Source of the DNA: an uncultured Acidobacteriota bacterium
GTDB lineage: Bacteria > Acidobacteriota > Vicinamibacteria > Vicinamibacterales > UBA2999
DNA: 64,000 nucleotides
Direction of reading: 5' to 3'
Assembly (NCBI GenBank): GCA_902826515.1
Contig: CADEFD010000007.1
Location: forward strand, 3,373-67,372
How positions within the stretch are numbered: the stretch's first letter is position 1; each line of letters opens with the position of its first letter. Under the pieces are notes generated by a model that did no database searches, was not told where the DNA came from, and saw only the letters and a list, made by a program, of their open reading frames with translations. Positions 9,078-39,808 of the stretch are shown here, in pieces. The translations under genes were made by a program, and so were the position numbers.

Positions 9078-9308
9078 ATGTCGACGACGTACTGGATATC
9101 ACTGGGCTTGGTGGTGGTCGGCGCCTTGAACTGGGGTCTCGTGGGCCTCTTCCAGTTCGATCTGGTGGCCGAGCTGTTTGGCGGTCCGGAGACGGCCGCG
9201 AGCCGCGCGGTCTACACGCTGGTAGGTCTTGCCGCCATCCTGCTGCTGGTCGTGCGGAACCAGCCGGCGGTCCCGGGGATCACGGCCGAGACGCGGTCGC
9301 TCGGCTGA
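9078..9308 (+). CDS. DUF378 small membrane protein
   Basis: 76 aa with SD GAGGGGAG upstream. The sequence WISLGLVVVGALNWGLVGLFQFDLVAELFGG...RAVYTLVGLAAI is the DUF378 signature. Confidence 0.8.
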   Translation: MSTTYWISLGLVVVGALNWGLVGLFQFDLVAELFGGPETAASRAVYTLVGLAAILLLVVRNQPAVPGITAETRSLG

Positions 9309-10078: not shown

Positions 10079-10089
10079 AGTGCGGCTGG

Positions 10090-10563: not shown

Positions 10564-10709
10564 GCCCGGAGCGGTGCATGAATTGCGCCGCCCGCGCGTG
10601 CCGCGAAATTCCCGCCGGGTGGGTAGCCGCCTACTCAGATTGGGCAGGCGGCGTTCTCGCGACCCTCGCAGGGCGTCCGTAAACGCGGCATACCGTTTGA
10701 AGCACTGGC

Positions 10710-11747: not shown

Positions 11748-11809
11748 AGGGTACGGCGGGCCTCGCGCGTCTGACGCCGCCCGCCTCGATGTCTGTTCCT
11801 GGGGGTGTG

Positions 11810-16766: not shown

Positions 16767-16767
16767 T

Positions 16768-16785
16768 GCGGCTCACGAGAGCCGC
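16768..16785. terminator. Hairpin straddling convergent stop codons (possible bidirectional terminator)
   Basis: GCGGCTC-ACGA-GAGCCGC, a perfect 7-bp stem between or over the kinase stop (16766) and the argA stop (16773). There is no U-tract. Confidence 0.3.
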
Positions 16786-20825: not shown

Positions 20826-23218
<2,393 letters not shown>

Positions 23219-23312
23219 CGGTGGCACGGTCCCGCGAGCGCGTCCGTCCGACTGTCGAGCCGGCGGTGCTCACCCGTACGGGTGATACGACCTGAGACAC
23301 GACATCCGCGCG

Positions 23313-23426: not shown

Positions 23427-26372
23427 ATGTTCCGCTATCGGCCTTCTTGCGCGTTTGCACCTCTGGCGGTTGCGGCAGCGATCGTGTCGTGTCTGTCCGG
23501 CAACGCTCACGCGGAGCCCGCCATCTTCGACCAGTACACGCTGACGTCATGGACCGACGAAGACGGTCTGTTTGGCGGCTGGATCGTGGGCATCGCGCAG
23601 GACGAGCGCGGCTACATGTGGATTGGCACCGTGAGCGGCCTGCTGACCTTCGACGGCATCCGCTTCGAACGCTTCCAGCCGCGCGCCGGCGACCGTCTGC
23701 CGCAGCGATCGATCTCGAGCGTCGTCTCGACACGCGACGGGAGCGTGTGGGTGGGATTCAGCGGCAGCGGCGGCGTGTGCCGCATCCGCGAGGGGCGTGT
23801 CATCGACTACGGCGTCGAGGACGGCCTGGGCGAAGGCCGGGTCACGGCGCTCGTCGAAGACGCCGACGGGGTGATGCTGGCGTCCACGGCCGACGGGTTG
23901 TTCCGGTTCTTCGAAGGCCGCTGGCAACGCGTGAGCGACGCGCAAGGCCTGCCCGGCGGGCCGGTGCACGGTTTGTTCCGGGATCACACCGGCTCGATGT
24001 GGGCGTCGACGTCGACCGCCGTGTTCCGCCGCGGCCGTCGCGACGACGGCTTTCAGGCGGTGACCCAGACGTCCTACCGCGCCCTCAGCTTCACCGAAGC
24101 CCCGGGGGGCGTCATCTGGACGTCGAACCCGGAGTCCGGATTCGGTCCGCTCGTTGACGGCGAGGTGCAGTCGACGCCACGCTCCGCGCGCCAGGGCCGA
24201 GGCTATCGGGTGCTGCACGACCATCGCGGCAACCTGTGGGTGGCCACGCTCGGTCAGGGTCTGTGGTTCGTGCCCGCCGGTGCCCGCGACCCGCAGGTCG
24301 TCGGCATACAGAACGGCCTGTCGAACGACACCGTGCGCACGTTGTTCGAAGACCGCAACGGCGATGTGTGGGCGGGCACCACGGTCGGGCTCCACCGATT
24401 CGCGCGCCGGCGCGTGGCGCCCGTCACCGACCTCGATGTGGCCAGCGCGGTGGAAGCGGATCCTCGCGGAGGGCTCTGGGTCGGCACGGCCACCGGCCTC
24501 ATCCACATGCGCGACGGCGTCCGCCGTCGTTACGGCGCGGCTGACGGCCTGCCCGACCCGCAGGTGCGTGCCCTCCACCTGGATCGCTCGGGCACGCTGT
24601 GGGTGGCAACGGAGCAGGGCCTCGCCGTCGTGTCGGCGGACGGCGCACTCACGACCCCGCGCCTGCGGGAGGGCCGGTGGCCGGCGGGGGTGATGGCGAT
24701 CGCGATGGCGCCCACCGGCGAGCTGTGGCTGTGCACCCAGGACCACGGCGTGTTTCGCTGGGCGGGCGGCCGCCTCCTGCCCGTGACGTTGACGTCCGAT
24801 GAGCGGCCCACCGATTCGGTGTTCACCGACAGCCAGGGGCGCCTGTGGGTGGTGCTCCAGGGCGGTGGCATCGGCGTCGTGGAACGCGACGGCGCGTTCC
24901 GCGTCCTGCGCCGGGGCGACCGCTTCCATCGCAGTGAACTCGCCATCTACGAAGATCGGTCCGGGGCCGTCTGGTTCGGCGCCGGCGGGCGCCTGACACG
25001 ATTCAAGGACGGTGCGCTCAAGGCCATCACGCCCGCACACGGCCTGCCTTCCGACACCATCCGCGCCATCGTCGGCGACGACGACGATCATCTGTGGATC
25101 GGCACGAGCGGCGGCATCCTGCGGCTGGCCGCCCGTGAGTTCGATCGTGTGCTGGCCGATGCAGACAATCGGCTCGACTTCCGCGCCTACAACTCCTCGG
25201 ACGGCCTGGCCGGAGCGCCCGTGCGTGCCGGCTTCCCCAATGCCGCGCGCACGCCGGACGGACGCCTCTGGTTCGTGACCGGGAACGGCCTGACGATGCT
25301 GGATCCGCTGCAGCTGGCGGCGACGCGACCGGCGCCGCCGGTGCACATCGAACGCCTGATGGCTGCGGGCCGGGCGTTCGAGCCCGCAGGTGGCCTCACG
25401 CTGCCCGCGGGCACCGTCGCGTTTCAGATCGAATACACCGCGCTCGAATACTTCTCGCCACGGCAGGTGCAGTTCCGCTACCGGCTGGAGGGGTTCGACG
25501 ACACCTGGACCGACGTCGGCGCGCGCCGCATCGTCTCGTTCACCAACCTGCCGCCGCGGTCATACCGCTTCCGTGTCATCGCCCGGAGCAGCGAGGGCGT
25601 GTGGAACGACCATGGCGCCGTCCTCGACTTCGCCGTCGCCCCCACGTTCTACCAGACACGCGCCTTCGCCGGCGTCTGTGGTGCGGCCGGTGTCGCGCTC
25701 CTCATCGGCGGCTGGCGGCTGCGGCTCCGTCAGGTGCGCCGCCAGTTCGGTCTGGTGCTGACCGAGCGGGCGCGGATGGCGCGTGAGATCCACGACACGC
25801 TGCTGCAGAGCCTGGCCGGGCTGGAACTGCAGGTCGACGCCATGTCGACGCAGCTCGATGTGTCGCCGGCCGGCGTCAAGCAGCAGCTCGAGCGTGTCCG
25901 GCGTCAGATCCAGTCGGATGTGACCGACGCGCGCCAGTCGATCTGGGACCTGCGGTCGCCGCTCCTCGAGTCGCGCGACCTGGCGAGTGCCCTGCAGCAG
26001 CTCGGCGACGCCGTGACCGCCTGCAGCCGCACGCGCTTCGAGTTCGTCGTGACGGGCCGCCCGGCCCGCTGCGCCCGCAAGATCGAAGAGCACGTGCTGC
26101 GGGTCGGCCGCGAGGCTGTGAGCAACGCCGTGCGCCACGCGCACGCGGGGGTGGTGCGACTCGAGCTCGCGTACGGGGACGACACGATCATCCTGAAGGT
26201 CTCGGACGACGGCTGCGGATTCGATCCCGCGCAAGCCGTGCACGAGAGCGCCCACTGGGGCATGGCGACGATGCACGAGCGTGCCCAGGCCATCGGCGGG
26301 CGACTCCGGCTCGTGAGCCATCCGGGCGGCGGCACCAACCTGGAAATGGTGGCGCCGCTGCTGGCGCCCTGA
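23427..26372 (+). CDS. Sensor histidine kinase with a periplasmic two-component-regulator-propeller / Y_Y_Y domain (NarL-class kinase core)
   Basis: Signal/anchor MFRYRPSCAFAPLAVAAAIVSCLSGNAHA. There are many propeller repeats (GYMWIGTVSGLLTFDG, GSVWVGF, GNLWVATLGQGLW, GDVWAGTTVGLHRF, GTLWVATEQGLAVV ...). These are followed by the Y_Y_Y segment (FQIEYTALEYFSPRQVQFRYRLEGFDDTW), a TM helix, a HisKA_3-type H-box (REIHDTLLQSL) and an ATPase (VSDDGCGF). Confidence 0.85.
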   Translation: MFRYRPSCAFAPLAVAAAIVSCLSGNAHAEPAIFDQYTLTSWTDEDGLFGGWIVGIAQDERGYMWIGTVSGLLTFDGIRFERFQPRAGDRLPQRSISSVVSTRDGSVWVGFSGSGGVCRIREGRVIDYGVEDGLGEGRVTALVEDADGVMLASTADGLFRFFEGRWQRVSDAQGLPGGPVHGLFRDHTGSMWASTSTAVFRRGRRDDGFQAVTQTSYRALSFTEAPGGVIWTSNPESGFGPLVDGEVQSTPRSARQGRGYRVLHDHRGNLWVATLGQGLWFVPAGARDPQVVGIQNGLSNDTVRTLFEDRNGDVWAGTTVGLHRFARRRVAPVTDLDVASAVEADPRGGLWVGTATGLIHMRDGVRRRYGAADGLPDPQVRALHLDRSGTLWVATEQGLAVVSADGALTTPRLREGRWPAGVMAIAMAPTGELWLCTQDHGVFRWAGGRLLPVTLTSDERPTDSVFTDSQGRLWVVLQGGGIGVVERDGAFRVLRRGDRFHRSELAIYEDRSGAVWFGAGGRLTRFKDGALKAITPAHGLPSDTIRAIVGDDDDHLWIGTSGGILRLAAREFDRVLADADNRLDFRAYNSSDGLAGAPVRAGFPNAARTPDGRLWFVTGNGLTMLDPLQLAATRPAPPVHIERLMAAGRAFEPAGGLTLPAGTVAFQIEYTALEYFSPRQVQFRYRLEGFDDTWTDVGARRIVSFTNLPPRSYRFRVIARSSEGVWNDHGAVLDFAVAPTFYQTRAFAGVCGAAGVALLIGGWRLRLRQVRRQFGLVLTERARMAREIHDTLLQSLAGLELQVDAMSTQLDVSPAGVKQQLERVRRQIQSDVTDARQSIWDLRSPLLESRDLASALQQLGDAVTACSRTRFEFVVTGRPARCARKIEEHVLRVGREAVSNAVRHAHAGVVRLELAYGDDTIILKVSDDGCGFDPAQAVHESAHWGMATMHERAQAIGGRLRLVSHPGGGTNLEMVAPLLAP

Positions 26373-26377
26373 CCGCC

Positions 26378-27013
26378 ATGTCGAGCGCCCGCCAGCCGAT
26401 CCGCGTGCAGTGCGTCGACGACCACGCGGTCGTGCGCGAAGGCATCAGTCTCAAGATCAACCTCGAGCCCGACATGACGGTCGTCGCCGCGGCCGCGACC
26501 GGCGAGCAGGCCGTGGCGCTCTTCACGGAGCACCGGCCCGATGTCACGCTGATGGACCTGCAGTTGCCGGCGATGAGCGGCCTCGAGGCGATTCGCGCCA
26601 TCCGCGCCATCGACGGCGCCGCGCGGATCGTCGTGCTCACGATGTACTCGGGCGAAGAGGACGTCTATCGCGCGCTGCAGGCCGGCGCCGCCACCTACCT
26701 GCTGAAGGGGACGCTGTCGGACGATCTCGTGCGCATCGTCCGCGAGGTCCATGCGGGTGGACGACCGATGCCGCCGGACGTAGCGGCCACGCTGGCGGCG
26801 CGCGTGCCGCGATCGGCGCTGACGCCGCGCGAAGTGGAAGTCGTGACGCTCATGGCGAAGGGCCTGCACAACAAGGAAATCGCGGCCCTGATGCACATCA
26901 GCCACGAGACCGTGCGCATCCACGCGAAGAACATCTTCTTCAAGCTGCAGGTGCCAGACCGCACGGCCGCCGTGGTGGATGCGTTACGCCGCGGCATCAT
27001 TCACATGAGCTGA
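26378..27013 (+). CDS. NarL/LuxR-family response regulator
   Basis: Receiver (IRVQCVDDHAVVREG...VTLMDLQLPAMSG) plus a LuxR HTH (LTPREVEVVTLMAKGLHNKEIAALMHISHETVRIHAKNIFFKL). ATG lies 5 nt after the kinase stop. Confidence 0.9.
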   Translation: MSSARQPIRVQCVDDHAVVREGISLKINLEPDMTVVAAAATGEQAVALFTEHRPDVTLMDLQLPAMSGLEAIRAIRAIDGAARIVVLTMYSGEEDVYRALQAGAATYLLKGTLSDDLVRIVREVHAGGRPMPPDVAATLAARVPRSALTPREVEVVTLMAKGLHNKEIAALMHISHETVRIHAKNIFFKLQVPDRTAAVVDALRRGIIHMS

Positions 27014-27393
27014 GCGCCGCGCCGGCGGCCCATGGCCGGCCTGCCGGCCGCGTCGCATCTCTGATTTCGCACGCTCCAACCCGTTCGGGTGATTGACGGT
27101 CCGCACCGGCGGACCGATCATCACGCACCGTTGAGAGAGACGGTTCGTCGATCGACAGCTCACTGCGTGCGGCGCTGGCAGGCGCCGTTGGCAGCACCTC
27201 GCAGCTGAACACGAAGGCTTGCGCGCGGTGGGGTTCGATGACGGCGAGTGAGGCGCGTCGACCGGGGAGACACGTGAGGCCTCGTGCCGCTGGGCACGGC
27301 CGCACCGTCGTCAGTGTTCCTCTCGGCCGTCCATGAGCGGGAGCCGTCAGGTTGCGCCAGGCGCGCCGCGGGCATCCCCTCCGGGAGAATCAG

Positions 27394-30300
27394 ATGGCAG
27401 GCAAAGTGTTCGCGGCGATCGTGTTCGGGCTGGCGGCCGCCCTGGCCGCGCCGGCACCCGCGGCCGCGCAGGGTACCGGCGCCGGCACGATCGCCGGTGT
27501 CGTGCGCGACGAGTCGGGCGGCGTGCTGCCCGGCGTCACGGTGGAGATCTCGAGCCCGGCACTCATCGAGAAGGTGCGGGCCACGGTGACCGATGGCGAC
27601 GGCGCCTACCGCGTGTCGGAGCTGCGGCCCGGCGACTACGCGGTCGTCTTCACGATGCCCGGGTTCGCGGTGATGCGCCGCGAGGGCATCGAGATCACGT
27701 CGAACTTCACCGCCAGCATCAACGTGGTGATGAAGGTCAGCGCGCTCGAGGAGACGATTACGGTGAGCGGGCAGACGCCGCTCGTCGACACGTCGACGGC
27801 GACGCAGCGCACCACCATCACCCGCGAGGTGCTGGCCGCGGTGCCGACCTCGCAGAGCGCGCTGGCCATCGCCTCGCTGATGCCGGCGGTGGTGCAGCCG
27901 CCGAGCGCTCAGGATGTCGGCGGCAGCATGGGAGAGCGGTCGGTGCGGATCTCGGTGCACGGGTCGCGCACCTCGGATGCCCGGCTGCGCCAGGAGGGCA
28001 TGATCTACAACGCGCTGACGCCCGGCGCCGACTACGGCACCGGCGGGCTCGAAGGCACGGGCCGCGGCTACTACGTGAACCCGCTGGCGGCGAGCGAGAT
28101 TGTCGTCGACGTCGGCACCATGGGCTCGGCTGAATACGGTGTCGGCGGCGCCCAGTCGAACGCGCTCTACAAGGACGGCGGCAACGAGTTCCGCGGCACG
28201 GTGTTCGGTGCCTGGACCGGACATCAACTGCAGTCGGGCAACCTGTCGGATGAGTTGCGGTCGCAGGGGCTGAACCAGGTCAACACGCTGCGCAAGATCT
28301 ACGACGCCAACGTCGCCCTCGGCGGCGCCCTGTGGCGCGACAAGCTGTGGTACTTCGGCCATGCGCGCTCCTGGGGCGTCACCGGCCGGCCCGCCAACCT
28401 GTTCCGCGACGCCAACCTCGGTCAGCGCGTGGTCGGGGCGCCGGCGGCCGCCTGGCGCTACGCGCCGGATACGAGCCAGCCGGTCGATCAGCGCGAGATC
28501 GACAAGGGCGCCGGCCTGCGTCTGACCTCGCAGTTCACGACCAAGGACAAGATCACCTTTTCCTACGACCGGCAGAAGAACTTCCAGGACTCGCTGACGG
28601 GCGCCCTCAACCTCGGCACCACCAAAGTCGAGAGCAACGCGCCCTACTGTCAGCAGCACTCGGTCTACCAGGGGCTGTGGCTGCGACCGCAGTCGAATCG
28701 GCTGCTGTTCGAGGGCGGCGCTACCGTCAGCAAGTTCACCTTCGGGAACGGCGGCTGGGGCAACGAACTCGACCTCAGCGACTACCAGCAGTGCGGCGAG
28801 ATGTTGTTCGACAACGTCTCGATCAACGACACCGGGCTCGGCTACACCTACAACGGCGGCGGCAACCGCAACCTCGCCAAGTCGTTCCAGACCAACGGCC
28901 GCGCCTCGGTCTCGATCATGGCCGGCGCCCACAGCGTCAGGCTCGGCACGCAGTGGATGTTCGGGCTCGGCGGCGGCCACCGCGTCTCGAACGACCGGAC
29001 GCCCGCGCAGGTGCAGGGGCTCCCGGTCGCCTACACCTTCCTCAATGGCCGGCCGACCGGGCTCACCCAGTACGCCACGCCGCTCAACATCGTGTCGCAG
29101 CTCAACCCCGACCTCGGCATCTTCGTGCAGGACCAGTGGCGAATCGGCTCGCGCCTGACGCTGAGCGGCGGCCTGCGCTTCGACTGGCTGCACGAATCGG
29201 TCCCCGAGACCTGCCAGCAGGCCGGGCCGCTCGTGGACGCGCGCTGTTACGAGGCGCTGCCGACGGTGACGAACTGGAAGGACCTCAACCCGCGGTTCGG
29301 CGTGGTCTGGGATCCCTTCGGCGATGGGCGCACCGCCGTCAAGGGCGGCATCAATCGCTATGTGACCGGGGCCACGACCGGCATGGCGAGCGCCTTTGCC
29401 GGCGCCAACGCCGCGGTCAGCAACACCACCCGGGCGTGGAACGACGCCAACGGCAACTTCCTGCCCGATTGCGAGCTGCGCACGCCAGGTGCCAACGGGG
29501 AGTGCGGCGCCCTGGCCAACCAGAACTTCGGCCGCCTGGTGCGTACGACCGTGCCCGATCCCGACATGAGCGAGGGCTGGGGCAAGCGCGGCTATAGCTG
29601 GCAGGCGCAGATGTCGATCGACCGTCAGCTGTTCTCCGGCGTGTCGGTGACCGCGGGTTACTACCGCACCTGGTACGGCAACTTCATCGCCGTCGACAAT
29701 CAGGCGGTCACACCCGCCGACTACAGCCAGTACTGCGTGTCGGTGCCCGACGACCCACGCCTGCAGTCGCAGATCCGCGGTCAGCAGCTGTGCGGTCTCT
29801 ACGACCTCAACCCCGACAAGTTCGGACAGGTCAACAACGTCGTCACGTTCGCCAAGAACTTCGGCACGCAGCGCGACATCTACAACGGCGTCGATGTGCT
29901 GTTCCAGGCGCGCATCAAGGGACACACCGCCAGCGGCGGCTGGAACATCGGCAACTCGATCCAGTCCGGCACGACGGCCGGCGGCGCGGTGGGCTCGAGC
30001 TCGGACCGCTGCTTCGTCGTCGACTCGCCGCAGCAGTTGTTCCGCTGCAAGGTCAACAACCCCTACCAGAGCCGCTTCAAGTTCAACTGGTCGTACCTGC
30101 TGCCGTGGCAGGACATCCAGCTGGCGGCCGTGTTCCAGAACAACCCCGGGCCGCAGTTCACCACCAACATCGCCTACTCGAACGCGCTCATCGCGCCGTC
30201 GCTGGGCCGATCGCTGTCGGGCAACGTGCAGCAGGTGACCGTCGAGGTCGCCGAGCCGAACACGCAGTTCGGGCCGCGCATCACCCAGGTCGATGTGCGG

Positions 30301-30492
30301 GCGACGAAGATCGTCCGCTTCGGAACCCGGCGGCTGCAGTTCAACTTCGACGTCTACAACGCCCTCAACGGCAACGCCGTCATCAACTACTTCAGCACCT
30401 ACAGCCTGGCCAACGGCGGCGCGCGCTGGAAGACGCCGACGCAGATCCTCGACGGGCGCCTGGCCAAGGTCAGCCTGCAGGTCGATTTCTAG
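27394..30492 (+). CDS. TonB-dependent receptor-like outer-membrane protein with an N-terminal carboxypeptidase-regulatory-like domain
   Basis: SD GGGAGA. Signal peptide MAGKVFAAIVFGLAAALAAPAPAAAQ. G.IAGVVRDESGGVLPGVTVEISS...TDGDGAYRVSELRPGDYAVVFTMPGF is the CarboxypepD_reg fold. A plug-like segment (TITVSGQTPLVDT) follows. The roughly 900-aa barrel ends ...RLAKVSLQVDF. Confidence 0.85.
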   Translation: MAGKVFAAIVFGLAAALAAPAPAAAQGTGAGTIAGVVRDESGGVLPGVTVEISSPALIEKVRATVTDGDGAYRVSELRPGDYAVVFTMPGFAVMRREGIEITSNFTASINVVMKVSALEETITVSGQTPLVDTSTATQRTTITREVLAAVPTSQSALAIASLMPAVVQPPSAQDVGGSMGERSVRISVHGSRTSDARLRQEGMIYNALTPGADYGTGGLEGTGRGYYVNPLAASEIVVDVGTMGSAEYGVGGAQSNALYKDGGNEFRGTVFGAWTGHQLQSGNLSDELRSQGLNQVNTLRKIYDANVALGGALWRDKLWYFGHARSWGVTGRPANLFRDANLGQRVVGAPAAAWRYAPDTSQPVDQREIDKGAGLRLTSQFTTKDKITFSYDRQKNFQDSLTGALNLGTTKVESNAPYCQQHSVYQGLWLRPQSNRLLFEGGATVSKFTFGNGGWGNELDLSDYQQCGEMLFDNVSINDTGLGYTYNGGGNRNLAKSFQTNGRASVSIMAGAHSVRLGTQWMFGLGGGHRVSNDRTPAQVQGLPVAYTFLNGRPTGLTQYATPLNIVSQLNPDLGIFVQDQWRIGSRLTLSGGLRFDWLHESVPETCQQAGPLVDARCYEALPTVTNWKDLNPRFGVVWDPFGDGRTAVKGGINRYVTGATTGMASAFAGANAAVSNTTRAWNDANGNFLPDCELRTPGANGECGALANQNFGRLVRTTVPDPDMSEGWGKRGYSWQAQMSIDRQLFSGVSVTAGYYRTWYGNFIAVDNQAVTPADYSQYCVSVPDDPRLQSQIRGQQLCGLYDLNPDKFGQVNNVVTFAKNFGTQRDIYNGVDVLFQARIKGHTASGGWNIGNSIQSGTTAGGAVGSSSDRCFVVDSPQQLFRCKVNNPYQSRFKFNWSYLLPWQDIQLAAVFQNNPGPQFTTNIAYSNALIAPSLGRSLSGNVQQVTVEVAEPNTQFGPRITQVDVRATKIVRFGTRRLQFNFDVYNALNGNAVINYFSTYSLANGGARWKTPTQILDGRLAKVSLQVDF

Positions 30493-30511
30493 GACTCCGG
30501 AGATGCCTCAC

Positions 30512-31465
30512 ATGCGACTTGCGTTGTTCACCGCACTCACGGCCGGCCTGGTCGGCGCCCTCGGCACCGCGCCGGTCTCGGTGCAGGCGCCGCCGCGCGG
30601 CGACGGCGGCGTCCGCATCCTCCAGCAGGCGCCCACCGACCGATCCGTGAACGTTCCCGGCGAGACGCTCACCCGGTATCTGAAGGAGATGGACGCTCAC
30701 AAGCTGGCCACCCTCCGCATGGTCGAGGGCGGCAAGTACAACGTGAACATCCGCCGCATCCGCAACGCGGAGACGGCGCTCATCCACCCGAAGACGATCG
30801 ACACCTGGGTCGTGCTCGACGGCGGCGGCACCATGACGACGGGCGGCCGCATCGAGCAGGGCAGGATCGTCGGCGGCGTCTCCACGCCGCTCAAGGTCGG
30901 CGACGTCTACTTCGTGCCGGCCGGCGTGCCGCACGGCGTGAGCGGCGTGAACGGCAGCGTGACCTGGCTGAACGTCCGGTGGGACGTCGATTGGGCCGAC
31001 GGCGCGACGATGGGCGCCGGCACGCTCACGCCGCCGCCGGCGGCGCCGGGACGGCCGTCGTTCAAGCCGCTCGAGTACGCGCCGGCCGACCGCGCCGTCT
31101 ACATCCCGAAGGAGAAGCTCACCGGCTACCTGGCGCAGATGGAAGCCGACAAGTCGGCCGTGCTGCGGATGATCGAAGGCGGGCACTTCAACGTCAACAT
31201 CCGTCGCGTCAAGGCGCCCTCGGCCGAGCACCATCCGGTCACGGCTGACGCGTGGGTGCTCATCGAAGGCGGTGGCATGGTGGCGACCGGCTTCGACCGC
31301 AAGGGCAACCAGCCGGTGCCCGGTACCGGGGTCAGCGCGTTCGCGCGCGTCGGCGACCTCTTCTACGTGCCGGCCAACCTCACGCACGGGTTCACGGCCG
31401 TCGACTCGGTGGCGGCCTGGCTGAACATCCGCTGGGACACCAACTGGCCGGCGGCGGGCCGGTAG
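30512..31465 (+). CDS. Exported bicupin (two tandem cupin modules), hypothetical
   Basis: Start is ATG 30512 (GGAG 9 nt upstream) or ATG 30503. Signal peptide MRLALFTALTAGLVGALGTAPVSVQA. The two halves are internally duplicated and each ends VGD.(Y/F).VPA...HG.......W.N(V/I)RWD. Confidence 0.7.
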   Translation: MRLALFTALTAGLVGALGTAPVSVQAPPRGDGGVRILQQAPTDRSVNVPGETLTRYLKEMDAHKLATLRMVEGGKYNVNIRRIRNAETALIHPKTIDTWVVLDGGGTMTTGGRIEQGRIVGGVSTPLKVGDVYFVPAGVPHGVSGVNGSVTWLNVRWDVDWADGATMGAGTLTPPPAAPGRPSFKPLEYAPADRAVYIPKEKLTGYLAQMEADKSAVLRMIEGGHFNVNIRRVKAPSAEHHPVTADAWVLIEGGGMVATGFDRKGNQPVPGTGVSAFARVGDLFYVPANLTHGFTAVDSVAAWLNIRWDTNWPAAGR

Positions 31466-31475
31466 GAGGGGCGTC

Positions 31476-32729
31476 ATGACGCATACCGCCCTTTCCCTGC
31501 GCCTGGCCGAGACCGCCTGGATCCTCGCCGTGGCGATGGCCGCCCTCACGGCGAGCGGCGCCTGCCGCGAGCGCCCAGTGGCCGCCGACCCCGCGCCCGC
31601 CGCGGCCGCCGAGGGGATGCCGGTGTTCGAAGTCGATCGGTCCTGGCCGCCGCCGCTGCCCTACAACTGGAAGGTGGGTCACGTGCCGTCGGTGGCGGTG
31701 GACTCCCGCGATCACGTGTTCGTGCTGTCGCGGCCCAATACGCTCCCACCGGAGGAACGCGCCCGCGCGGCCCCGCCGGTCGTCGAACTCGACGACCAGG
31801 GGCGCTTCGTGAACGCGTGGGGCGGCCCTGGCACGAGCGGCTTCGACTGGCCCGACAGCGAGCACGGCATCGCGCTCGACGCCAGCGACAACGTCTGGAT
31901 TGGCGGCAGCGCGCCGGTCGCGCCCTCCCTCTTCCGGCGCAACGACGACATGCTGCTCAAGTTCGCGCGCGACGGACGCTTCCTGCTGCAGATCGGCGGC
32001 CGCGACAGGAGTCCGACCTCGGCGTCGCCGCCGCAGGAGGGCGGCAACAGGGATCCGGACAGCGTGCACCAGCCGGCCGATGCCTTCGTGCACACGCCCA
32101 CCAACGAGGTGTTCGTCGCCGATGGCTACGGCAACCGGCGCGTCGTGGTGTTCGACGCCGGGACCGGGGCGTTCAAGCGGGCCTGGGGCGCCTTCGGCCG
32201 GACGCCGCTCGACGTGCTGGTGCCGCTCGGCCCGCCCTCGGGCGATCGGGCGCTCGACACCGAAGGTGAGGGCGCGCCGCAGTTCGGCAGCCCCGTCCAC
32301 AGCGTGAAGGTGGCGCGTGACGGACTCGTCTACGTGGCCGATCGCGCCAACCGGCGCGTCCAGGTGTTCCAGCTCGATGGCACCTACGTGACGCAGATGT
32401 TCCTGAACCGCGGCGGCCCGTCGGCGGCGTCGGCCGCCGGCCTGGCTTTCTCGCCGGATCCGTCGCAGCGCTTCCTCTACGTCGCCGACTACGGGAACTC
32501 GCGCATCGCGGTCGTCGAGCGGACGTCGCTCGAGCTGCGCTACCAGTTCGGCGACCGCAGCGCCAGGCCCGGCGACTTTCAGGGGCTGCATCACATCGCC
32601 GTCGACTCGAAGGGGAACCTTTACACAGGCGAGGTCGCCCCCGGCGCACGCATGCAGCGGTTCCTCTACAAGGGGCTGTCGGCCACGGTGCCGGCCAACG
32701 GCGTGCCGGCGGCGACGCCGGGCTCATGA
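31476..32729 (+). CDS. NHL-repeat beta-propeller lipoprotein (PAL-like fold)
   Basis: Lipobox LTASGAC. Repeated NHL-type strands (HGIALDASDNVWIG; VFVADGYGNRRVVVFD; LVYVADRANRRVQVFQLDG; FLYVADYGNSRIAVV; IAVDSKGNLYTGE). ATG lies 10 nt after the bicupin stop. Confidence 0.75.
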   Translation: MTHTALSLRLAETAWILAVAMAALTASGACRERPVAADPAPAAAAEGMPVFEVDRSWPPPLPYNWKVGHVPSVAVDSRDHVFVLSRPNTLPPEERARAAPPVVELDDQGRFVNAWGGPGTSGFDWPDSEHGIALDASDNVWIGGSAPVAPSLFRRNDDMLLKFARDGRFLLQIGGRDRSPTSASPPQEGGNRDPDSVHQPADAFVHTPTNEVFVADGYGNRRVVVFDAGTGAFKRAWGAFGRTPLDVLVPLGPPSGDRALDTEGEGAPQFGSPVHSVKVARDGLVYVADRANRRVQVFQLDGTYVTQMFLNRGGPSAASAAGLAFSPDPSQRFLYVADYGNSRIAVVERTSLELRYQFGDRSARPGDFQGLHHIAVDSKGNLYTGEVAPGARMQRFLYKGLSATVPANGVPAATPGS

Positions 32730-32781
32730 CGGCGGGCGCGCACGCGTCCACGTCTCACTCACGGTTCCGGGAGGATTGGTG

Positions 32782-33849
32782 ATGTCGAAGCGAAATCGCA
32801 CGACCGCGCGTCTGCTTGCCGTGCTCACCACGGTGCTGATGTCGGTGGCCGGGCCCGAGGCTCAGAGCACGCCGAGCGCGATGAACAATCCCTATCGCCT
32901 CGTGCCGTCGTGGCCGGCGCTCGGCCCGGGCATGAAGTGGGGTGCCGCCATCGGGCTCATTCCCGACGGGCAGGGCGGCGTGTGGATGCACTTCCGGTCG
33001 GAGCCGCCTATCAACCACTTCGACGCGGCCGGCAGGTTGCTCGCGAGCTTCGGCCAGGGCGTGTTCGTCCAGGCCCACGGCTTCTGCCGCGATCGCGCCG
33101 GCAACTTCTGGGCCGGCGACAGCGGGCCGTTCCGCGACGATCCGTCGACGAAGGGCCGCGGCTTCACGCTGCACAAGTTCAGCCCGGAGGGGAAGCTGCT
33201 CCTGACGCTCGGCAAGCCCGGGGTGTCCAGGGCCGGCACCGACACCTTCATCGGACCCACGGCCTGCGCCATTGCACCGAACGGCGACATCATCGTGGCC
33301 GACGGCCACTGGCCGCGGCCCTCCGATGCCCAGCAGGACGGCGACCGCCTGGTCCGGTTGACGCCGGACGGGAAGTTCATCCGCGCCGTCGGCAAGATGG
33401 GATCGGGGCCCGGCGAGTTCATGGGACCGCACTCGCTGGCCTTCGACTCGCAGGGCCGCCTGTTCGTCGCCGACCGCTCGAACAACCGCGTGCAGGTGTT
33501 CGACGCGGATCTCAACTTCGTCGACGACTGGCGGCACTTCGGCCGCCCGAGCGGCGTCGCGATCCTCAAGGACGACACGCTCGTCGTGTCCGACTCGGAA
33601 TCCGGCTTCCCGATCGACGGCCCGGCCATGGCGCCGGAAGGCGGCGGGCCCAGCAAGCGCAACCCGGGCTGGCGCAACGGCGTGCGGATCGGCAGCGCGC
33701 GCGACGGTTCGCTCACGCAGTTCATCCCCGACACGCGGCCCGAAGGCCTGGCCGCCGACGAGCACGGCAACATCTTCGCGGGGCTGACCGGCGGTTGCGA
33801 CAGGAGTCCCTCGGGGGGCTGCCTGCAGAAGTGGGTGCGGTCACGGTAA
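32782..33849 (+). CDS. NHL-repeat beta-propeller protein, exported
   Basis: ATG at 32782 lies 6 nt after GGGAGGA. Signal peptide MSKRNRTTARLLAVLTTVLMSVAGPEAQS. NHL strands include GDIIVADGH, HSLAFDSQGRLFVADRSNNRVQVFD and LAADEHGNIFAG. Confidence 0.75.
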   Translation: MSKRNRTTARLLAVLTTVLMSVAGPEAQSTPSAMNNPYRLVPSWPALGPGMKWGAAIGLIPDGQGGVWMHFRSEPPINHFDAAGRLLASFGQGVFVQAHGFCRDRAGNFWAGDSGPFRDDPSTKGRGFTLHKFSPEGKLLLTLGKPGVSRAGTDTFIGPTACAIAPNGDIIVADGHWPRPSDAQQDGDRLVRLTPDGKFIRAVGKMGSGPGEFMGPHSLAFDSQGRLFVADRSNNRVQVFDADLNFVDDWRHFGRPSGVAILKDDTLVVSDSESGFPIDGPAMAPEGGGPSKRNPGWRNGVRIGSARDGSLTQFIPDTRPEGLAADEHGNIFAGLTGGCDRSPSGGCLQKWVRSR

Positions 33850-33926
33850 CGCGCGCACGCGCGGCGCAGGACGGGCCGGCACGCGCCGGCGGAGCGACGT
33901 CGAGGCGGCGTCAGGAAGGAATCAAC

Positions 33927-34481
33927 ATGCAGCGGGCGGTGACGGCGGTCGTGGCGGTGTGGGCCGCCGGGGTCATGGTGGCGTGGTCGCAATCGCGACC
34001 CTCGGTGTCGACGGCGGTCACGAAGGCCGACGTCGAAGCCGTCCTCAAGTATCCGGAGGGCGGCGCGGACCGGCAGATCAAGGTGGTCGACGTCGGCAGG
34101 CTGAACGTCGCTGTGGGCGTGCTGCACCGCGACGCGGTGAAAGACACGGGCTGGCCGGTGCGCGGTCTAAGCCACACCCAGGTGACCGAGGTCTATTACA
34201 TCACCTCGGGGTCGGGCACGCTCGTCACCGGCGGCACGCTGATCGATCAGAAGCCGTTCCCGCCCGACTCCGAAGTGGTCAAGGTGGCCGTCGGGCCGAG
34301 CGTGACGAGCGCCAGCCAGAACGGCCAGACCCGCGTGGTCTCGGCCGGCGACATCGTGGTGATTCCGGCCGGGATGTTCCACGGCTGGAAGGAAGTGCCC
34401 AGCCACGTGACCTACGTGAGCATCCGGCCGGATCCCGACCGGGTGCTGCCGGCGGGCTACGTCAGCCCGGCGATCAAATAG
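33927..34481 (+). CDS. Exported single-cupin protein, same module as the bicupin
   Basis: ATG lies after AGGAAGGA. Signal peptide MQRAVTAVVAVWAAGVMVAWSQS. The motifs SHTQVTEVYYITSGSGTL...AGDIVVIPAGMFHGW...VTYVSIRPD parallel both halves of 30512..31465. Confidence 0.65.
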   Translation: MQRAVTAVVAVWAAGVMVAWSQSRPSVSTAVTKADVEAVLKYPEGGADRQIKVVDVGRLNVAVGVLHRDAVKDTGWPVRGLSHTQVTEVYYITSGSGTLVTGGTLIDQKPFPPDSEVVKVAVGPSVTSASQNGQTRVVSAGDIVVIPAGMFHGWKEVPSHVTYVSIRPDPDRVLPAGYVSPAIK

Positions 34482-34513
34482 CGCGGCCCCCGCGCGCGAC
34501 GTCGGTGTTTTTT
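34481..34513 (+). terminator. Possible intrinsic terminator after the cupin gene
   Basis: GCGCGG-CCC-CCGCGC hairpin starting at the stop codon, then the CGACGTCG palindrome and a T6 run (34508-34513). T6 runs are rare in this DNA. The geometry is imperfect. Confidence 0.35.
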
Positions 34514-34696
34514 CCGGGCGGCTCTCCTGCCAGAGCCGATGGGGTGGGCGGCGTTCGACGACAGCGCCGTCTGCCGCTCGAGGCCCGCGTTCGGCCCTTA
34601 CTCGACGGGGCCGGACGCGGGCGCGCCGGACCGCCGCGCGCCAACCGACCCGACGAACCCTGCGACTGGACTTTCCGTTTGAGTGAGGAGCCGACG

Positions 34697-35614
34697 ATGA
34701 CGCTGCGACTGTGTACGACCTGGTGTGTGATGGTGCTCCTGAGCCTGCCCGCCGTGAGCTACGGCCAGCTCACCGCCGAGCACGAGGAGCTGTCAGGAAT
34801 CATCGATGTCCACCAGCACGTGGGGCCTGCCACGCAGCTGTCGATTCCGCGCTCGCTCGATGCGATCGAGACCGCGCAGATTGCCAAGCGGCATGGCATG
34901 AGGGCAATCGTGTTCAAGCAGCACTACCTCGAGACGGCCTCGTGGGCCTACCTCGTCTCGAAGGTGGTGCCCGGCATCCAGCTGTTCGGCGGCGTCGCCC
35001 TCAATCGCTCTGTGGGCGGGCTCAACCCGAATGCGGTCGAGCAGGTGGCGACGTTCCGCGGCGGGTTCGGCCGGGTGGTCTACTTTCCGACCTTCGAGTC
35101 GGAGCACTACAACCCAGGCTCGCCCATCGCGGTGCCGATCTCGAAGAACGGGCAGCTGCTGCCGGCGGTCTTCGACGTGCTGACGGTGATGGCAAAGTAC
35201 GACATGAGCATGTCGACCGGCCACTCCAGCCCGGCCGAGTCGTTGCTGCTCATCAAGGCGGCGAAGGAGAAGGGCGTCAACCGCATCTACGTCCAGCACC
35301 CGATGCTCGACCGCGTCGGCATGACCATCGATCAGCAGAAGGAGGCCGCGAAGATGGGCGCGCTGCTCGAGTACGTGATTGGCGAGGCGCTCGGCGCGCC
35401 CAAGGCGTTCGAACACTGGGCCGAGGGGATCCGCGCCGTCGGGCCGCAGAACGTGATCATCTCGACCGACCTCGGCCAGGTCGGCCGGCCGATTCCCACC
35501 GACGGCTACAAGGCGGTGCTGCCGCGGCTCAGGAAGTTCGGTTTCACCCAGGCGGAACTCGACGTGATGACCAAGACCAACCCGGCCCGGTTCATCGGCA
35601 TCGACAAGTGGTGA
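34697..35614 (+). CDS. Exported metal-dependent amidohydrolase-fold (TIM-barrel) protein
   Basis: SD GAGGAG. Signal peptide MTLRLCTTWCVMVLLSLPAVSYGQ. IIDVHQHVGP (the HxH metal motif at the start of strand 1), ...MSTGHSS..., ...IYVQHP..., and ...IISTDLGQ (Asp of strand 8) fit the amidohydrolase superfamily. Confidence 0.7.
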   Translation: MTLRLCTTWCVMVLLSLPAVSYGQLTAEHEELSGIIDVHQHVGPATQLSIPRSLDAIETAQIAKRHGMRAIVFKQHYLETASWAYLVSKVVPGIQLFGGVALNRSVGGLNPNAVEQVATFRGGFGRVVYFPTFESEHYNPGSPIAVPISKNGQLLPAVFDVLTVMAKYDMSMSTGHSSPAESLLLIKAAKEKGVNRIYVQHPMLDRVGMTIDQQKEAAKMGALLEYVIGEALGAPKAFEHWAEGIRAVGPQNVIISTDLGQVGRPIPTDGYKAVLPRLRKFGFTQAELDVMTKTNPARFIGIDKW

Positions 35615-35923: not shown

Positions 35924-38362
35924 ATGACGAGAGTTCCTGCCGCGCTGGTCGCCCTGGCCCTGCCGGCCGTGGTCACCGCGCTATCGGCGGCACAGGCGCC
36001 CCGGCCGGTGACGCCGGCGCCGCGTCCGGCGGCTTCACACGCCCCGGTCGCCGCGACGTCGGCGTCGAACAACGAGACCATCCAGACCTACTGCGTAGGC
36101 TGTCACAACGACCGCTCGAAGTCGGGCGGCCTGTCGCTGGCGGCGTTCGACGTCGCGAAGGCAGACGCGCACGCCGACGTGGCCGAGAAGGTCGTGCGCA
36201 AGCTGCGCACCGGCATGATGCCGCCGCGCGGCGCGTCGAAGAAGCTCGAGGCGCCGGCGCGTGACGCGCTGGCCGCCGCACTCGAGACCACGCTCGACCG
36301 CAGCGCGGCCGTGAACCGCAACCCCGGCCGCCGGTCGTTCCAGCGTCTCAACCGCGCCGAATACGTGGCGGCCGTACGCACGCTCGTCGGCCTCGACATC
36401 GACGTCAGCCAGTACCTCCCGGCCGACACCATCAGCGCCAGCTTCGACAACATCGCCGACGTGCAGATGCCGTCGGCCACCGTGATGCAGGGGTACCTGC
36501 GCGCCGCGGCCTACGTGAGCCGTATCGCGGTGGGCGACCCCACCATCGACGCCACCTCCACGCAGTACGAAGTGCCGCGCACGCTCTCGCAGAAGGAACG
36601 GCTCGAGGGCGCGCCGTTCGGCACCCGCGGCGGCACCGTCGTGACGCACAACTTCCCGGCCGACGGGAAGTACAAGTTCCAGATGCTGCTGCACGGCGAA
36701 CCCACCGGGTATCTCTTCGGCCGCACGATGCGCGCCATCGAGATGGAAGTGGCCGTGGACGGCGAACGCGTGGCGCTCGTGAAGGTCGATCGCTGGATGT
36801 CGGAATCCGATCCCGATGGCCTCACGCTCTCGACCGCGCCCATCTACGTGCGCGCCGGCGCCCGCCAGGTGTCGGCCACCTTCATCCAGGAATTCGAGGG
36901 CGCGGAAGACGACCTCATCAAGCCCATCGACCACACGCTCGCCGACACGCAGATCGGCGTCGGGTATGGTGTGACCACACTCGCGCACCTGCGCAACCTG
37001 TCGGTCGTGGGGCCGTATGAAGCCACCGGCGTGTCGGATCATCCCGCCCGCCGCAACATCTTCACCTGCCGCCCGACGGCGCCCGGGGAAGACGTGGCCT
37101 GCGCCCGCGGCATCCTGCAGCGCCTCGCCACCCAGGCCTACCGCCGGCCGGCCACGAAGGCCGATGTCGATCAGCTGATGACGTTCTACAGCCAGGCGGC
37201 GAAGACGGACGGCTTCGAAGCCGGCATCCGCCAGTCGCTCCAGGCGCTGCTCACGAGCCTCCACTTCGTGTTCCGCGTCGAGGCGACCCCGGCCGGCGTC
37301 AAGCCCGGTGCGGCGTATCGCGTGAGCGATCTCGACCTCGCCTCGCGTCTCTCGTTCTTCCTCTGGAGCACGCTGCCCGATCGCGAGCTGCTCGACGTGG
37401 CGGCGCGCGGCGGCCTGACGCGGCCCGAGATGGCCGACCGCCAGGTGCGCCGGATGCTCGACGATCAGCGGTCGTCGGCCCTCGGCACGCGCTTCGCAGC
37501 GCAGTGGCTGCGCCTGCAGGACCTGACCAAGGTCGAACCCGACGCCCTGTCGTTCCCCTACTTCGACGAGTCGCTCGCCGAGGCGATGGGGCGCGAAACC
37601 GAGCTGCTCTTCGAACACCTCGTGAAGGAAGACCGCTCGGCGCTCGAACTGCTCACGGCCGACTACACGTTCGTGAACGAGCGGCTGGCGCGGCACTACG
37701 GCATTGCCGGCGTCAGCGGGCCGACGTTCCGCAAGGTCAGTTATCCCGACGACACGCGCCGCGGCCTGCTCGGCCACGGCAGCGTGCTCACACTCACCTC
37801 GCACGGCAACCGCACGTCGCCGGTGCTGCGCGGCAAGTGGGTGATGGAAGTGCTGCTCGGCAGCCCGCCGCCGCCGCCGCCGCCGAACGTGCCGGAACTC
37901 GAAGCCACCAAGGCCACCACCGCCGGCCGTCTGCTGTCGGTGGCCGAGCAGCTCGCGTCGCATCGCGCCAGCCCCGTGTGCAGCTCGTGCCACAACGTGA
38001 TCGACCCGATCGGGCTCTCGCTCGACAACTTCGACGTCACCGGCGCCTGGCGCATCAAGGATCGCGGCGTGCCGGTGAACGCGTCGGGGCAGCTCTACGA
38101 CGGCACCCCGCTCAACGGCGTGGGTGACCTGCGGGCGGCGCTCGTGGCGCGCTCGGACGTGTTCGTGACGCACCTCACCGAACGGCTGCTCTCGTACGCG
38201 CTCGGCCGCCGGGTCGAGTACTACGACATGCCCACGGTGCGGCAGATCGTGAAGGATGCGAAGGCCGCCGACTACCGGATGTCGGCTCTCATTCTCGGCG
38301 TCGTGCGCAGTGCGGCTTTCCGCACGGCGAGCGCCGACCAGACCGACGACACCCGGCAGTAG
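35924..38362 (+). CDS. DUF1592-family protein (with DUF1587/1595/1588/1585-type regions) carrying an N-terminal CxxCH motif
   Basis: 812 aa with signal peptide MTRVPAALVALALPAVVTALSAAQA. It carries TYCVGCHNDRSKSGGLSL...KLRTGMMPP, LFWSTLPDRELLD, DYTFVNERLARHYGI, a PPPPPPPNVP stretch, ...HR....C..CH..IDPIG..LDNFD..G.WR and LSYALGR..EYYD. Confidence 0.85.
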   Translation: MTRVPAALVALALPAVVTALSAAQAPRPVTPAPRPAASHAPVAATSASNNETIQTYCVGCHNDRSKSGGLSLAAFDVAKADAHADVAEKVVRKLRTGMMPPRGASKKLEAPARDALAAALETTLDRSAAVNRNPGRRSFQRLNRAEYVAAVRTLVGLDIDVSQYLPADTISASFDNIADVQMPSATVMQGYLRAAAYVSRIAVGDPTIDATSTQYEVPRTLSQKERLEGAPFGTRGGTVVTHNFPADGKYKFQMLLHGEPTGYLFGRTMRAIEMEVAVDGERVALVKVDRWMSESDPDGLTLSTAPIYVRAGARQVSATFIQEFEGAEDDLIKPIDHTLADTQIGVGYGVTTLAHLRNLSVVGPYEATGVSDHPARRNIFTCRPTAPGEDVACARGILQRLATQAYRRPATKADVDQLMTFYSQAAKTDGFEAGIRQSLQALLTSLHFVFRVEATPAGVKPGAAYRVSDLDLASRLSFFLWSTLPDRELLDVAARGGLTRPEMADRQVRRMLDDQRSSALGTRFAAQWLRLQDLTKVEPDALSFPYFDESLAEAMGRETELLFEHLVKEDRSALELLTADYTFVNERLARHYGIAGVSGPTFRKVSYPDDTRRGLLGHGSVLTLTSHGNRTSPVLRGKWVMEVLLGSPPPPPPPNVPELEATKATTAGRLLSVAEQLASHRASPVCSSCHNVIDPIGLSLDNFDVTGAWRIKDRGVPVNASGQLYDGTPLNGVGDLRAALVARSDVFVTHLTERLLSYALGRRVEYYDMPTVRQIVKDAKAADYRMSALILGVVRSAAFRTASADQTDDTRQ

Positions 38363-38379
38363 TCACACGGAGCAGACAG

Positions 38380-39789: not shown

Positions 39790-39808
39790 CCTCATGGAGA
39801 TCCGCCAG

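Follow-up and report, generated by a model that had tools for sequence, protein, structure and literature searches.

Which compound is taken up and processed by a bacterial locus that sets an envelope sensor and an outer membrane receptor beside exported cupins, NHL-repeat proteins and an amidohydrolase? The question is raised by eight genes, all on the + strand, between 23.4 and 35.6 kb of a 64-kb stretch of DNA (70% G+C) from an uncultured soil bacterium of the Acidobacteriota (Vicinamibacterales; contig CADEFD010000007.1), hereafter called the window. In order, they encode a sensor histidine kinase (HK), a response regulator (RR), a putative TonB-dependent receptor, a two-domain cupin (bicupin), two NHL-repeat proteins (NHL1 and NHL2), a single-domain cupin and a DUF6282 protein. 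A preliminary description, made from the sequence alone, had read this run as a sensor-controlled uptake module, and its gene order, co-direction, coordinates and gaps all matched our recheck, as its domain assignments matched a Pfam scan of the products. It had also given every product after the regulator an export signal, and inspection of the N-termini showed that in all six a hydrophobic stretch comes after an N-region of positive charge. Likewise, the lack that it had reported of any glycoside hydrolase, SusD-like protein, peptidase, TonB/ExbBD gene or nearby inner membrane transporter held in Pfam scans of the locus and its flanking genes, the sole transporter among the scanned window genes being a major facilitator superfamily (MFS) gene at 56.6 kb. 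NCBIfam added to Pfam a NarX/NarL-class similarity and weak ScyF-type NHL matches, and nothing else.

The answer that we reach differs in strength from part to part. The general architecture, comprising a sensor, a receptor-led operon and exported enzymes, is likely to be as proposed here, while the specific C-N lyase and peptide or ureide chemistry is a tentative assignment that we hold with real doubt. Taking the locus as a whole, we lean slightly towards a regulated uptake-and-processing system with C-N lyase chemistry.

Conservation of the gene set across related loci

The bicupin has 584 detectable homologues, the named ones from Vicinamibacterales or Acidobacteriota metagenome-assembled genomes. 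Its family is a small one: among 1.84 billion representatives, a profile search returned 41 members, mostly fragments, at E <= 1e-30. A scan with one genome per species gave 36 related loci, and we searched these by tblastn with the window proteins. For the 16 loci with a full bicupin match and a full ±10 kb flank, the bicupin gene was accompanied by the receptor gene in every case, by the single cupin gene in 15, by NHL1 and by NHL2 in 14 each, and by a gene for a DUF6282-family protein in 13. The genes occurred in at least six orders, including NHL1-NHL2-cupin-receptor-bicupin-DUF6282, receptor-DUF6282 / bicupin-NHL1-NHL2-cupin and bicupin-NHL1-NHL2-cupin-receptor-DUF6282; the recurring sub-blocks were bicupin-NHL1-NHL2-cupin and a receptor followed by a hydrolase. 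Several genomes contained two copies of the module, and a look-up of NHL1 homologues independently recovered the same gene set (locus L042). Because the genes stay together through rearranged orders, this pattern provides strong evidence that they form one functional unit, which is mainly restricted to Vicinamibacterales-type Acidobacteriota. The initial reading of the run as a single module was thus borne out by synteny in related genomes.

Other genes also recur in these neighborhoods. Cytochrome c-fused homologues of pyrroloquinoline quinone (PQQ) methanol/ethanol dehydrogenases (cluster c7) lie near the module in L010, L011, L013 and eight other loci, sometimes directly 5' of the bicupin gene, and their best NCBIfam match is 'acido-empty-quinoprotein group A', under the cut-off. 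An exported protein of ~330 residues without a Pfam or NCBIfam match (cluster c6) is present in 20 copies in 13 loci (e.g. at 10974 in L010 and 7954 in L013), and in two loci its gene lies between those of the bicupin and the receptor. Cluster c11 is a recurring protein of ~670 residues with three SnoaL_4 domains.

A complete lyase-type site in NHL1 and a fixed variant in NHL2

Both NHL1 and NHL2 contain NHL repeats according to Pfam, and both match NHL propellers in the PDB as well as peptidyl-alpha-hydroxyglycine alpha-amidating lyase (PAL; PDB 3FVZ); by homology, they would have six blades. We aligned rat PAL with 25 NHL1 and 22 NHL2 orthologues using MAFFT, after the rat sequence was verified as identical to 3FVZ (residues 498-820 of PAM). 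The equivalents of PAL His585, His690, His786, Tyr654, Arg533 and Arg706 were invariant in all 25 NHL1 orthologues, the window protein containing H130, H275, H372, Y218, R290 and the Arg533 equivalent. HMMER independently aligned the DGY segment of NHL1 with PAL; overall similarity to PAL is weak (E = 1.5e-5). At the PAL Ca2+ site, NHL1 has His and NHL2 has Gly in the position of Asp787. An SMP30-type lactonase reading of NHL1 was rejected, the site being of the His3/Tyr/Arg type. In NHL1 and its closest homologues, a Cys directly follows the hydrophobic stretch in a lipobox-like setting, so that NHL1 of this clade is probably a lipoprotein; more distant orthologues have a plain signal peptide.

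NHL2 matches 3FVZ (E = 1e-14 over residues 85-254) and retains His585, His690, Arg533 and Arg706. In all 22 orthologues, however, His (H176) stands in for Tyr654 and Glu for His786. NHL2 thus has a fixed variant of the PAL site and lacks the full set of six residues; in Pfam it also has weak SGL and strictosidine-synthase matches. The two proteins are joined in natural NHL1-NHL2 fusions of 660-720 residues (P0359, P0337, P0341, P0339 and P0313). In P0359 (718 residues; L037, 10001-12157), identity to NHL1 is 58% over the N-terminal half and identity to NHL2 is 72% over the C-terminal half, with a Pro/Ala-rich linker in place of the NHL2 signal peptide. A further fusion, P0347, was left out of account because frameshifts abound in its contig (L038), and the argument from fusions draws on P0359 and its relatives.

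Bacterial PAL homologues are active lyases whose natural functions have been described as unclear, and one of them, ExiPAL, uses H95/H210/H309 as Zn ligands together with Tyr178 (PMC10900485). The complete PAL catalytic site of NHL1 lends support to the early guess of a modified peptide as substrate.

One further locus, L039, has neither a receptor nor a cupin gene. There (5917-17886), an NHL1 orthologue (67% identity) and an NHL2-like gene (40%) lie between S15 (PepX/CocE) and M23 peptidase genes and adjoin a complete Opp-type peptide ABC transporter. This peptide-transport and peptidase neighborhood is a single hint of a peptide-like substrate.

A divergent cupin subfamily

Pfam assigned the bicupin to Cupin_2 and Cupin_1 and the single cupin to Cupin_2. 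In alignments, each bicupin domain has a His-x4-Asp motif and a G-x5-P-x-G-x2-H motif, which give the sets H92/D97/H141 and H241/D246/H292; alignment of the single cupin with both bicupin domains and 23 orthologues gave H83/E88/H152. Motif 2 is intact in the bicupin (G130...P136.G138..H141), with equivalents in its second domain and in the single cupin. In contrast, the canonical 3-His-1-Glu motif 1 (G-x5-H-x-H-x3,4-E-x6-G) is absent from all three modules, where the first His is replaced by Leu, and the modules appear to carry a 2-His-1-carboxylate set instead. A canonical 3-His dioxygenase reading was rejected on this substitution. The three modules are copies of one another, sharing an N-terminal helix, an NVNIRR-type strand and a WLNxRWD end, and the conserved NVNIRR...WLNxRWD signature with the extra N-terminal helix marks a small, separate cupin subfamily.

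The preliminary description had called for structure prediction and fold searches, and these led to bicupin folds for the bicupin and to a phosphotriesterase (PTE)/lactonase fold for the DUF6282 protein. The AlphaFold2 model of the bicupin (pLDDT 88.5) gave gentisate and salicylate 1,2-dioxygenases, quercetinase and oxalate decarboxylase as best Foldseek matches (TM-scores of 0.5-0.57, ~14% identity), with the periplasmic Mn-bicupin MncA (2VQA) also among the matches. Comparison of the bicupin with PDB sequences gave nothing useful, and the name that it bears at JGI is 'mannose-6-phosphate isomerase-like'. The cupins belong to the superfamily and to no characterized family within it.

DUF6282 and its replacement by a PTE-family hydrolase

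The product of the last gene matches DUF6282 (195 bits, E = 1.5e-57). H39-x-H41, H176, H201 and D258 are invariant in an alignment of 35 sequences and correspond to the PTE-like ligand set of the amidohydrolases (HxH, His, His and Asp on a TIM barrel, with the strands assigned provisionally); Glu134 and Lys74 are candidates for the bridging ligand. In its AlphaFold2 model (pLDDT 88.5), beta-strands and alpha-helices alternate to form a barrel, for which Foldseek gave SsoPox, PTE, GKL, DR0930 and PTER as best matches (TM ~0.6), and sugar lactonases of COG3618 are also found among the fold matches; against PDB sequences, the protein had only insignificant matches. From the model, the protein is predicted to be an exported phosphotriesterase/lactonase-like amidohydrolase which, although a member of the superfamily, lies outside any characterized family. 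This fold favors another of the initial guesses, that of a lactone.

At L037, a true PTE-family (PF02126) hydrolase with a Tat signal is encoded next to the receptor in place of DUF6282. This exchange within one fold family speaks for a PTE-like hydrolase step as part of the system. In that locus (4475-8806), the receptor open reading frame reads in frame, with no stop codon, into the hydrolase with its own twin-arginine-like signal (SRRKLIGALGAGVG), an arrangement that could stem from loss of a stop codon, from an error of long-read assembly or from a genuine fusion. Downstream of the hydrolase lie a VOC/glyoxalase gene, a gene for a different cupin and the NHL1-NHL2 fusion described above.

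The outer membrane receptor

The receptor has a signal peptide, a CarboxypepD_reg domain, a large C-terminal beta-barrel and a C-terminal Phe (...QVDF). Pfam matched the barrel to OMP_b-brl_4 (94.5 bits), the score for TonB_dep_Rec_b-barrel being 24.7 bits against a cut-off of 27, and similarity to the SusC/RagA model TIGR04056 was far below its cut-off (28.3 versus 368 bits). Orthologues with 56-76% identity are present in 17 loci. The receptor is thus a putative TonB-dependent beta-barrel of an acidobacterial CarboxypepD_reg/OMP_b-brl_4 class. Of its original assignment as a CarboxypepD_reg TonB-dependent receptor, the domain and the barrel were recovered and the plug was not: Plug (PF07715) gave no match in Pfam even at E <= 10, the receptor had no match among PDB sequences, and hhalign against the BtuB plug was negative, using an approximate BtuB sequence and a shallow profile. 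By eye, a TonB-box-like ETITVSG and plug-like motifs can be seen after the CarboxypepD_reg domain.

Sensor control and sensor exchange

The HK comprises an N-terminal anchor, a periplasmic domain of ~700 residues (twin propeller plus Y_Y_Y), a transmembrane segment, HisKA_3 and HATPase_c; the Pfam matches were Reg_prop (149 bits), Y_Y_Y, HisKA_3 and HATPase_c. Residues 35-744 align with the periplasmic sensor of BT4663 (4A2L) over the whole length of the domain (E = 8e-43), and the kinase core aligns with DesK and VraS, making the protein DesK/NarX-like rather than hybrid: it stops after HATPase_c, with receiver and GerE domains on a separate protein. That protein, the RR, is of the NarL/FixJ type (Response_reg plus a GerE helix-turn-helix), with NarL as its best NCBIfam match (146 bits, under the equivalog cut-off). 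With a HisKA_3 kinase and a receiver/GerE regulator whose genes lie 5 nt apart, the two form a two-component pair of the NarL/FixJ class.

Aligning the RR-receptor intergenic regions of five loci (the window, L001, L002, L003 and L028) revealed one strongly conserved element, ACCC-N4-GGGT-GAT abutting a TTGAC(G/A) -35 box, with a -10-like GAnnAT 17 nt further on. The inverted repeat is kept at the same position of the receptor promoter in the other four loci, and in L002 it reads ACTC...GAGT, a compensatory change that preserves the palindrome. A degenerate form of the motif occurred exactly once in each of these four loci, always at the receptor promoter, and was absent from the other 32 loci, which do not have the HK/RR pair. 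The exact ACCC-N4-GGGTGAT was found twice in the window, against 0.03 occurrences expected by chance. The way in which the inverted repeat tracks the HK/RR pair across loci makes a good comparative case for action of the NarL-type regulator at the receptor promoter, short of proving activation. The second copy in the window lies 5' of the HK gene and suggests autoregulation; it has no equivalent in L001, L002, L003 and L028 and is known from the window only. The receptor leader is long (~265 nt, window 27122-27393) and shares blocks with L001 (~6575-6855), such as GCGGCGCTGGCAGGCGCCG and GTGTTCCTCTCGGCCGTCCATGAGCGG.

Only in the closest clade does the module come with the propeller HK/NarL pair, namely in the window and four of the 36 loci (L001, L002, L003 and L028). 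In seventeen other loci, an alternative sensor set lies divergently adjacent to the first cargo gene. Its members are a TAXI-family solute-binding protein, a HisKA kinase that has a periplasmic loop, and a regulator of the OmpR type, and the set has the look of a sensor that depends on a binding protein and substitutes for the propeller kinase. In L006, L015-L020, L024-L027, L030, L034, L035, L040 and L042, the TAXI gene is in an operon with the HisKA kinase and OmpR regulator genes and lacks TRAP membrane genes. A third sensor type, a Trans_reg_C protein with PD40 propellers, is found at L037. Since three sensor types stand beside the cargo in different lineages, the cargo regularly goes with an envelope sensor, one that has been exchanged in evolution. 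The proposed sensor control of the locus is therefore supported at the promoter by a repeat that goes with the HK/RR pair, and as a property of the propeller kinase it holds for the window and those four loci.

Proposed pathway

Gene content, conservation of the module and of its catalytic residues, the folds and the cis motif are the observations on which the following scheme is built; in what we infer from them, from the direction of transport and the order of steps to the metals, the substrate and activation by the regulator, an envelope sensor kinase with a periplasmic domain of the Bacteroides hybrid-sensor type would detect a periplasmic ligand and phosphorylate the NarL-type regulator. 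The regulator would bind the repeat abutting the -35 box and activate the receptor-led operon. Through the receptor, some scarce or bulky organic compound would enter the periplasm, where the five Sec-exported enzymes would convert it. The DUF6282 protein, phosphotriesterase/lactonase-like and usually encoded next to the receptor gene, would open an ester, lactone or amide bond, the three cupin modules would carry out an O2-dependent or isomerizing step, and NHL1, as a PAL-type zinc lyase, would act with NHL2 to cleave the C-N bond of a carbinolamide (alpha-hydroxyglycine-like) to yield an amide and an aldehyde such as glyoxylate. All of these enzyme classes need only a bound metal and water or O2, which fits a periplasm that lacks ATP and NAD(P)H.

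PAL (EC 4.3.2.5) and ureidoglycolate lyase (EC 4.3.2.3) catalyze one type of reaction. Because a PAL-type C-N cleavage step is proposed, our best guess for the substrate is a peptide-like, N-acylglycine-like or ureide-like nitrogen compound. A bolder version, to which we give a small chance, makes the locus a periplasmic counterpart of the two-step amidation of animals, with the cupins in the role of PHM and NHL1/NHL2 in that of PAL: the cupins would hydroxylate the alpha-carbon beside an amide nitrogen, and NHL1/NHL2 would cleave the resulting carbinolamide.

Several points weigh against the proposed C-N lyase pathway. The structural Ca2+ ligand Asp787 is missing from NHL1, and the modeled folds of the bicupin (TM ~0.5) and of DUF6282 (TM ~0.6) have generic matches at ~15% identity. 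The TonB dependence of the receptor is read from its family annotation, with the plug undetected, and no inner membrane transporter is conserved with the module across the related loci. The DUF6282 gene may be transcribed separately, judging from the gap and the hairpin that precede it, and the tie between the propeller kinase and the module is limited to the closest clade. The closest solved relative of the sensor domain binds a glycan, and sugar-lactone-type enzymes (SGL, GSDH and quinoprotein homologues) recur near related loci, which would suit a sugar or lactone substrate just as well.

Alternative explanations

Those last two points lead to a periplasmic oxidative pathway for a sugar or sugar lactone, in which quinoprotein-type dehydrogenases encoded elsewhere would oxidize an imported glycan or sugar, DUF6282 or the propellers would open lactones and the cupins would isomerize the products. 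Homology of the sensor over its full length to the glycan-sensing BT4663, the PQQ-dehydrogenase homologues, GSDH and SGL genes near related loci, the COG3618 sugar lactonases among the DUF6282 fold matches and the JGI name of the bicupin are all consistent with such a pathway, and with sensor homology and sugar-lactone enzymes of this kind the preliminary description's reading of a non-carbohydrate substrate is unproven. We nevertheless consider the sugar pathway unlikely: no carbohydrate-active enzyme (CAZyme) or SusD is present in the window and none recurs in the related loci, the site of NHL1 is a PAL-type His3 site rather than an SMP30-type acidic one, and quinoprotein genes accompany the module in ~11 of the 36 loci only and are absent from the window. 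Degradation of an aromatic, flavonoid or lignin-derived compound is improbable too. It would make the cupins ring-cleaving enzymes, have DUF6282 act on a lactone or depside and treat the NHL proteins as lactonase- or strictosidine-synthase-like, as the best fold matches of the bicupin (gentisate and salicylate 1,2-dioxygenases and quercetinases) and of DUF6282 (lactonases) and the weak SGL and strictosidine-synthase matches of NHL2 might suggest; SnoaL-like proteins and an HpaB-family gene near some related loci point the same way. However, gentisate and salicylate dioxygenases and quercetinases use 3-His or 3-His-1-Glu sites, of which the first motif-1 His is Leu here, and the fold matches are low (TM ~0.5, 14% identity). 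No downstream aromatic pathway genes are conserved, and the invariant PAL-type Zn/Tyr/Arg site of NHL1 would be left unexplained.

TonB-dependent receptors are classic importers of metallophores, and the locus could serve metal acquisition or periplasmic metal handling, with import of a metal chelate by the receptor, metal binding by cupins akin to the cyanobacterial MncA and CucA and degradation of the chelator by the hydrolases. That all of the proteins are exported and predicted to be metalloproteins, and that MncA (2VQA) is among the bicupin fold matches, would suit this idea. Against it stand control by ligand-sensing two-component systems, the lack of any Fur/Zur-type regulator, ABC metal importer or reductase conserved with the module, and the PAL-type catalytic Tyr and Arg of NHL1, which indicate catalysis rather than storage; we regard it as very unlikely. 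That the genes are chance neighbors with unrelated functions, the two-component pair controlling something else, is the least credible explanation and one that we all but dismiss. The 380-nt and 215-nt gaps permit separate transcription and most related loci are without the HK/RR pair, but synteny provides an effective test of this idea, and the genes co-occur over at least six orders, NHL1-NHL2 fusions exist and the operator-like repeat tracks the HK/RR pair exactly. None of the sugar, aromatic and metal readings explains the invariant PAL site as well as C-N lyase chemistry does.

Locus layout and neighboring genes

The features of the locus are listed below. A possible terminator between the single cupin and DUF6282 genes had been suggested earlier. 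A hairpin and a T-run are present there; their separation makes for an imperfect geometry, and the sequence scan picked up the hairpin on the minus strand only, leaving a possible weak terminator or attenuator. Rfam detected no known RNA element in 22.5-36.5 kb, the receptor leader included.

Table. Genes and cis elements of the locus, in window coordinates
Feature	Position	Strand	Remarks
Inverted repeat ACCCGTACGGGTGAT	23272-23286	+	~140 nt 5' of HK start; candidate NarL-type autoregulatory site
HK	23427-26372	+	First gene of the run
RR	26378-27013	+	5 nt after HK
Inverted repeat ACCCGTTCGGGTGAT	27079-27093	+	Abuts -35 box of receptor promoter; candidate operator
Sigma-70-like promoter	27093-27121	+	TTGACG, 17-nt spacer, GATCAT; from promoter scan
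Receptor	27394-30492	+	380 nt after RR
Bicupin	30512-31465	+	19 nt after receptor; alternative ATG at 30503
NHL1	31476-32729	+	10 nt after bicupin
NHL2	32782-33849	+	52 nt after NHL1
Single cupin	33927-34481	+	77 nt after NHL2
Hairpin and T-run	34481-34514	+	GC-rich hairpin 34481-34495; T-run 34508-34514, 12 nt further
DUF6282 gene	34697-35614	+	215 nt after single cupin

According to Pfam, the flanking genes are unrelated to the locus and include a UvrA-like gene, an AraC regulator, a KaiC and PAS-kinase group, DUF1592/DUF1552 and ankyrin genes and dehydrogenases. The UvrA paralogue (20826-23218, + strand) is split over two frames by an apparent single-base shift near 22775-22800, the first frame ending in '...EAREF', and is either a pseudogene or the product of an assembly error. 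Further upstream (11333-16766, + strand), the gene for a KaiC-family ATPase precedes those for a multi-PAS protein and for a PAS hybrid histidine kinase that bears a receiver domain, the three possibly forming a KaiC-based timing or signaling module in an acidobacterium. Directly 3' of the locus lies a co-directional trio (35924-41578, + strand) that encodes a DUF1592/DUF1595/DUF1587/DUF1588/DUF1585 protein with a cytochrome c motif, a DUF1552 (HXXSHH) protein and a 594-residue ankyrin-repeat protein; these genes had no tblastn match in any related locus and were ruled out as members of the module.

Relation to known systems and implications

Like the PULs of Bacteroidota and the carbohydrate utilization (CUT) loci of Xanthomonas, the locus groups a receptor gene with genes for exported enzymes that process the substrate and for an envelope sensor of its own. 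With the PULs it further shares the twin-propeller/Y_Y_Y sensor domain homologous to BT4663 and the presence of several paralogous copies per genome. It departs from them in lacking SusD, any glycoside hydrolase, lyase or carbohydrate esterase, an inner membrane transporter and a SusC-class receptor; its cargo consists of cupins, NHL propellers and an amidohydrolase. Its HK is a classical HisKA_3 kinase with a separate NarL-type RR, whereas in the hybrid sensors of Bacteroidota the receiver and AraC domains are fused to the kinase. The label 'PUL-like' is thus apt for the arrangement of receptor, enzymes and sensor and, with the tests for SusD, a SusC-class receptor and CAZymes negative, remains an analogy.

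The individual proteins also combine likeness with difference. NHL1 resembles PAL (3FVZ) and ExiPAL in its predicted six-bladed NHL fold, three Zn-binding His, Tyr and both Arg, with a spacing similar to that of ExiPAL. By contrast, it is exported, in the closest clade probably as a lipoprotein, and is encoded in a catabolic-looking receptor operon with no PHM-type copper monooxygenase as partner; moreover, Asp787 is replaced, and NHL1 is paired, sometimes by fusion, with a paralogue bearing the Tyr-to-His and His-to-Glu changes. The bicupin shares the two-domain cupin fold and intact motif 2 with bicupin dioxygenases and MncA, and export with MncA. It differs from both in its low similarity (~14% identity, TM ~0.5) and in a metal site cut to His/Asp(Glu)/His. 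DUF6282 has the TIM barrel and the HxH, His, His and Asp ligands of the PTE-like lactonases, PTE and PTER, and a true PTE occupies the same place at L037, whereas the window protein is exported and has DUF6282 as its sole Pfam match. In the literature, we found no paper on DUF6282 and none on NHL and cupin genes that accompany an acidobacterial TonB receptor, nor any description of this gene set, in agreement with the initial statement that no characterized system has this composition.

Acidobacteriota are among the most abundant soil bacteria and have very many TonB-type receptors. To our knowledge, the substrates of almost all of these receptors are unknown. The locus offers a clear example that is both conserved and regulated and has a defined core of four enzyme genes. 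The propeller kinase and, in related loci, the TAXI-type solute-binding protein (a TRAP-family periplasmic component) are ligand-binding sensors and provide handles for finding the substrate. The same cargo stands behind three sensor types across lineages, a swapping of regulators that shows how uptake loci evolve. The locus also defines a small new cupin subfamily and puts DUF6282 into a pathway. Bacterial PAL-type lyases are in biotechnological use for peptide amidation, their natural role being stated as unknown (PMC10900485), and the locus gives these lyases a genomic setting with a receptor, a sensor and partner enzymes. If the two-step amidation scheme were true, Vicinamibacterales would obtain nitrogen and glyoxylate from glycine-terminated peptides, N-acylglycines or ureides through a dedicated receptor, and this would be the first natural function for bacterial PAL homologues.

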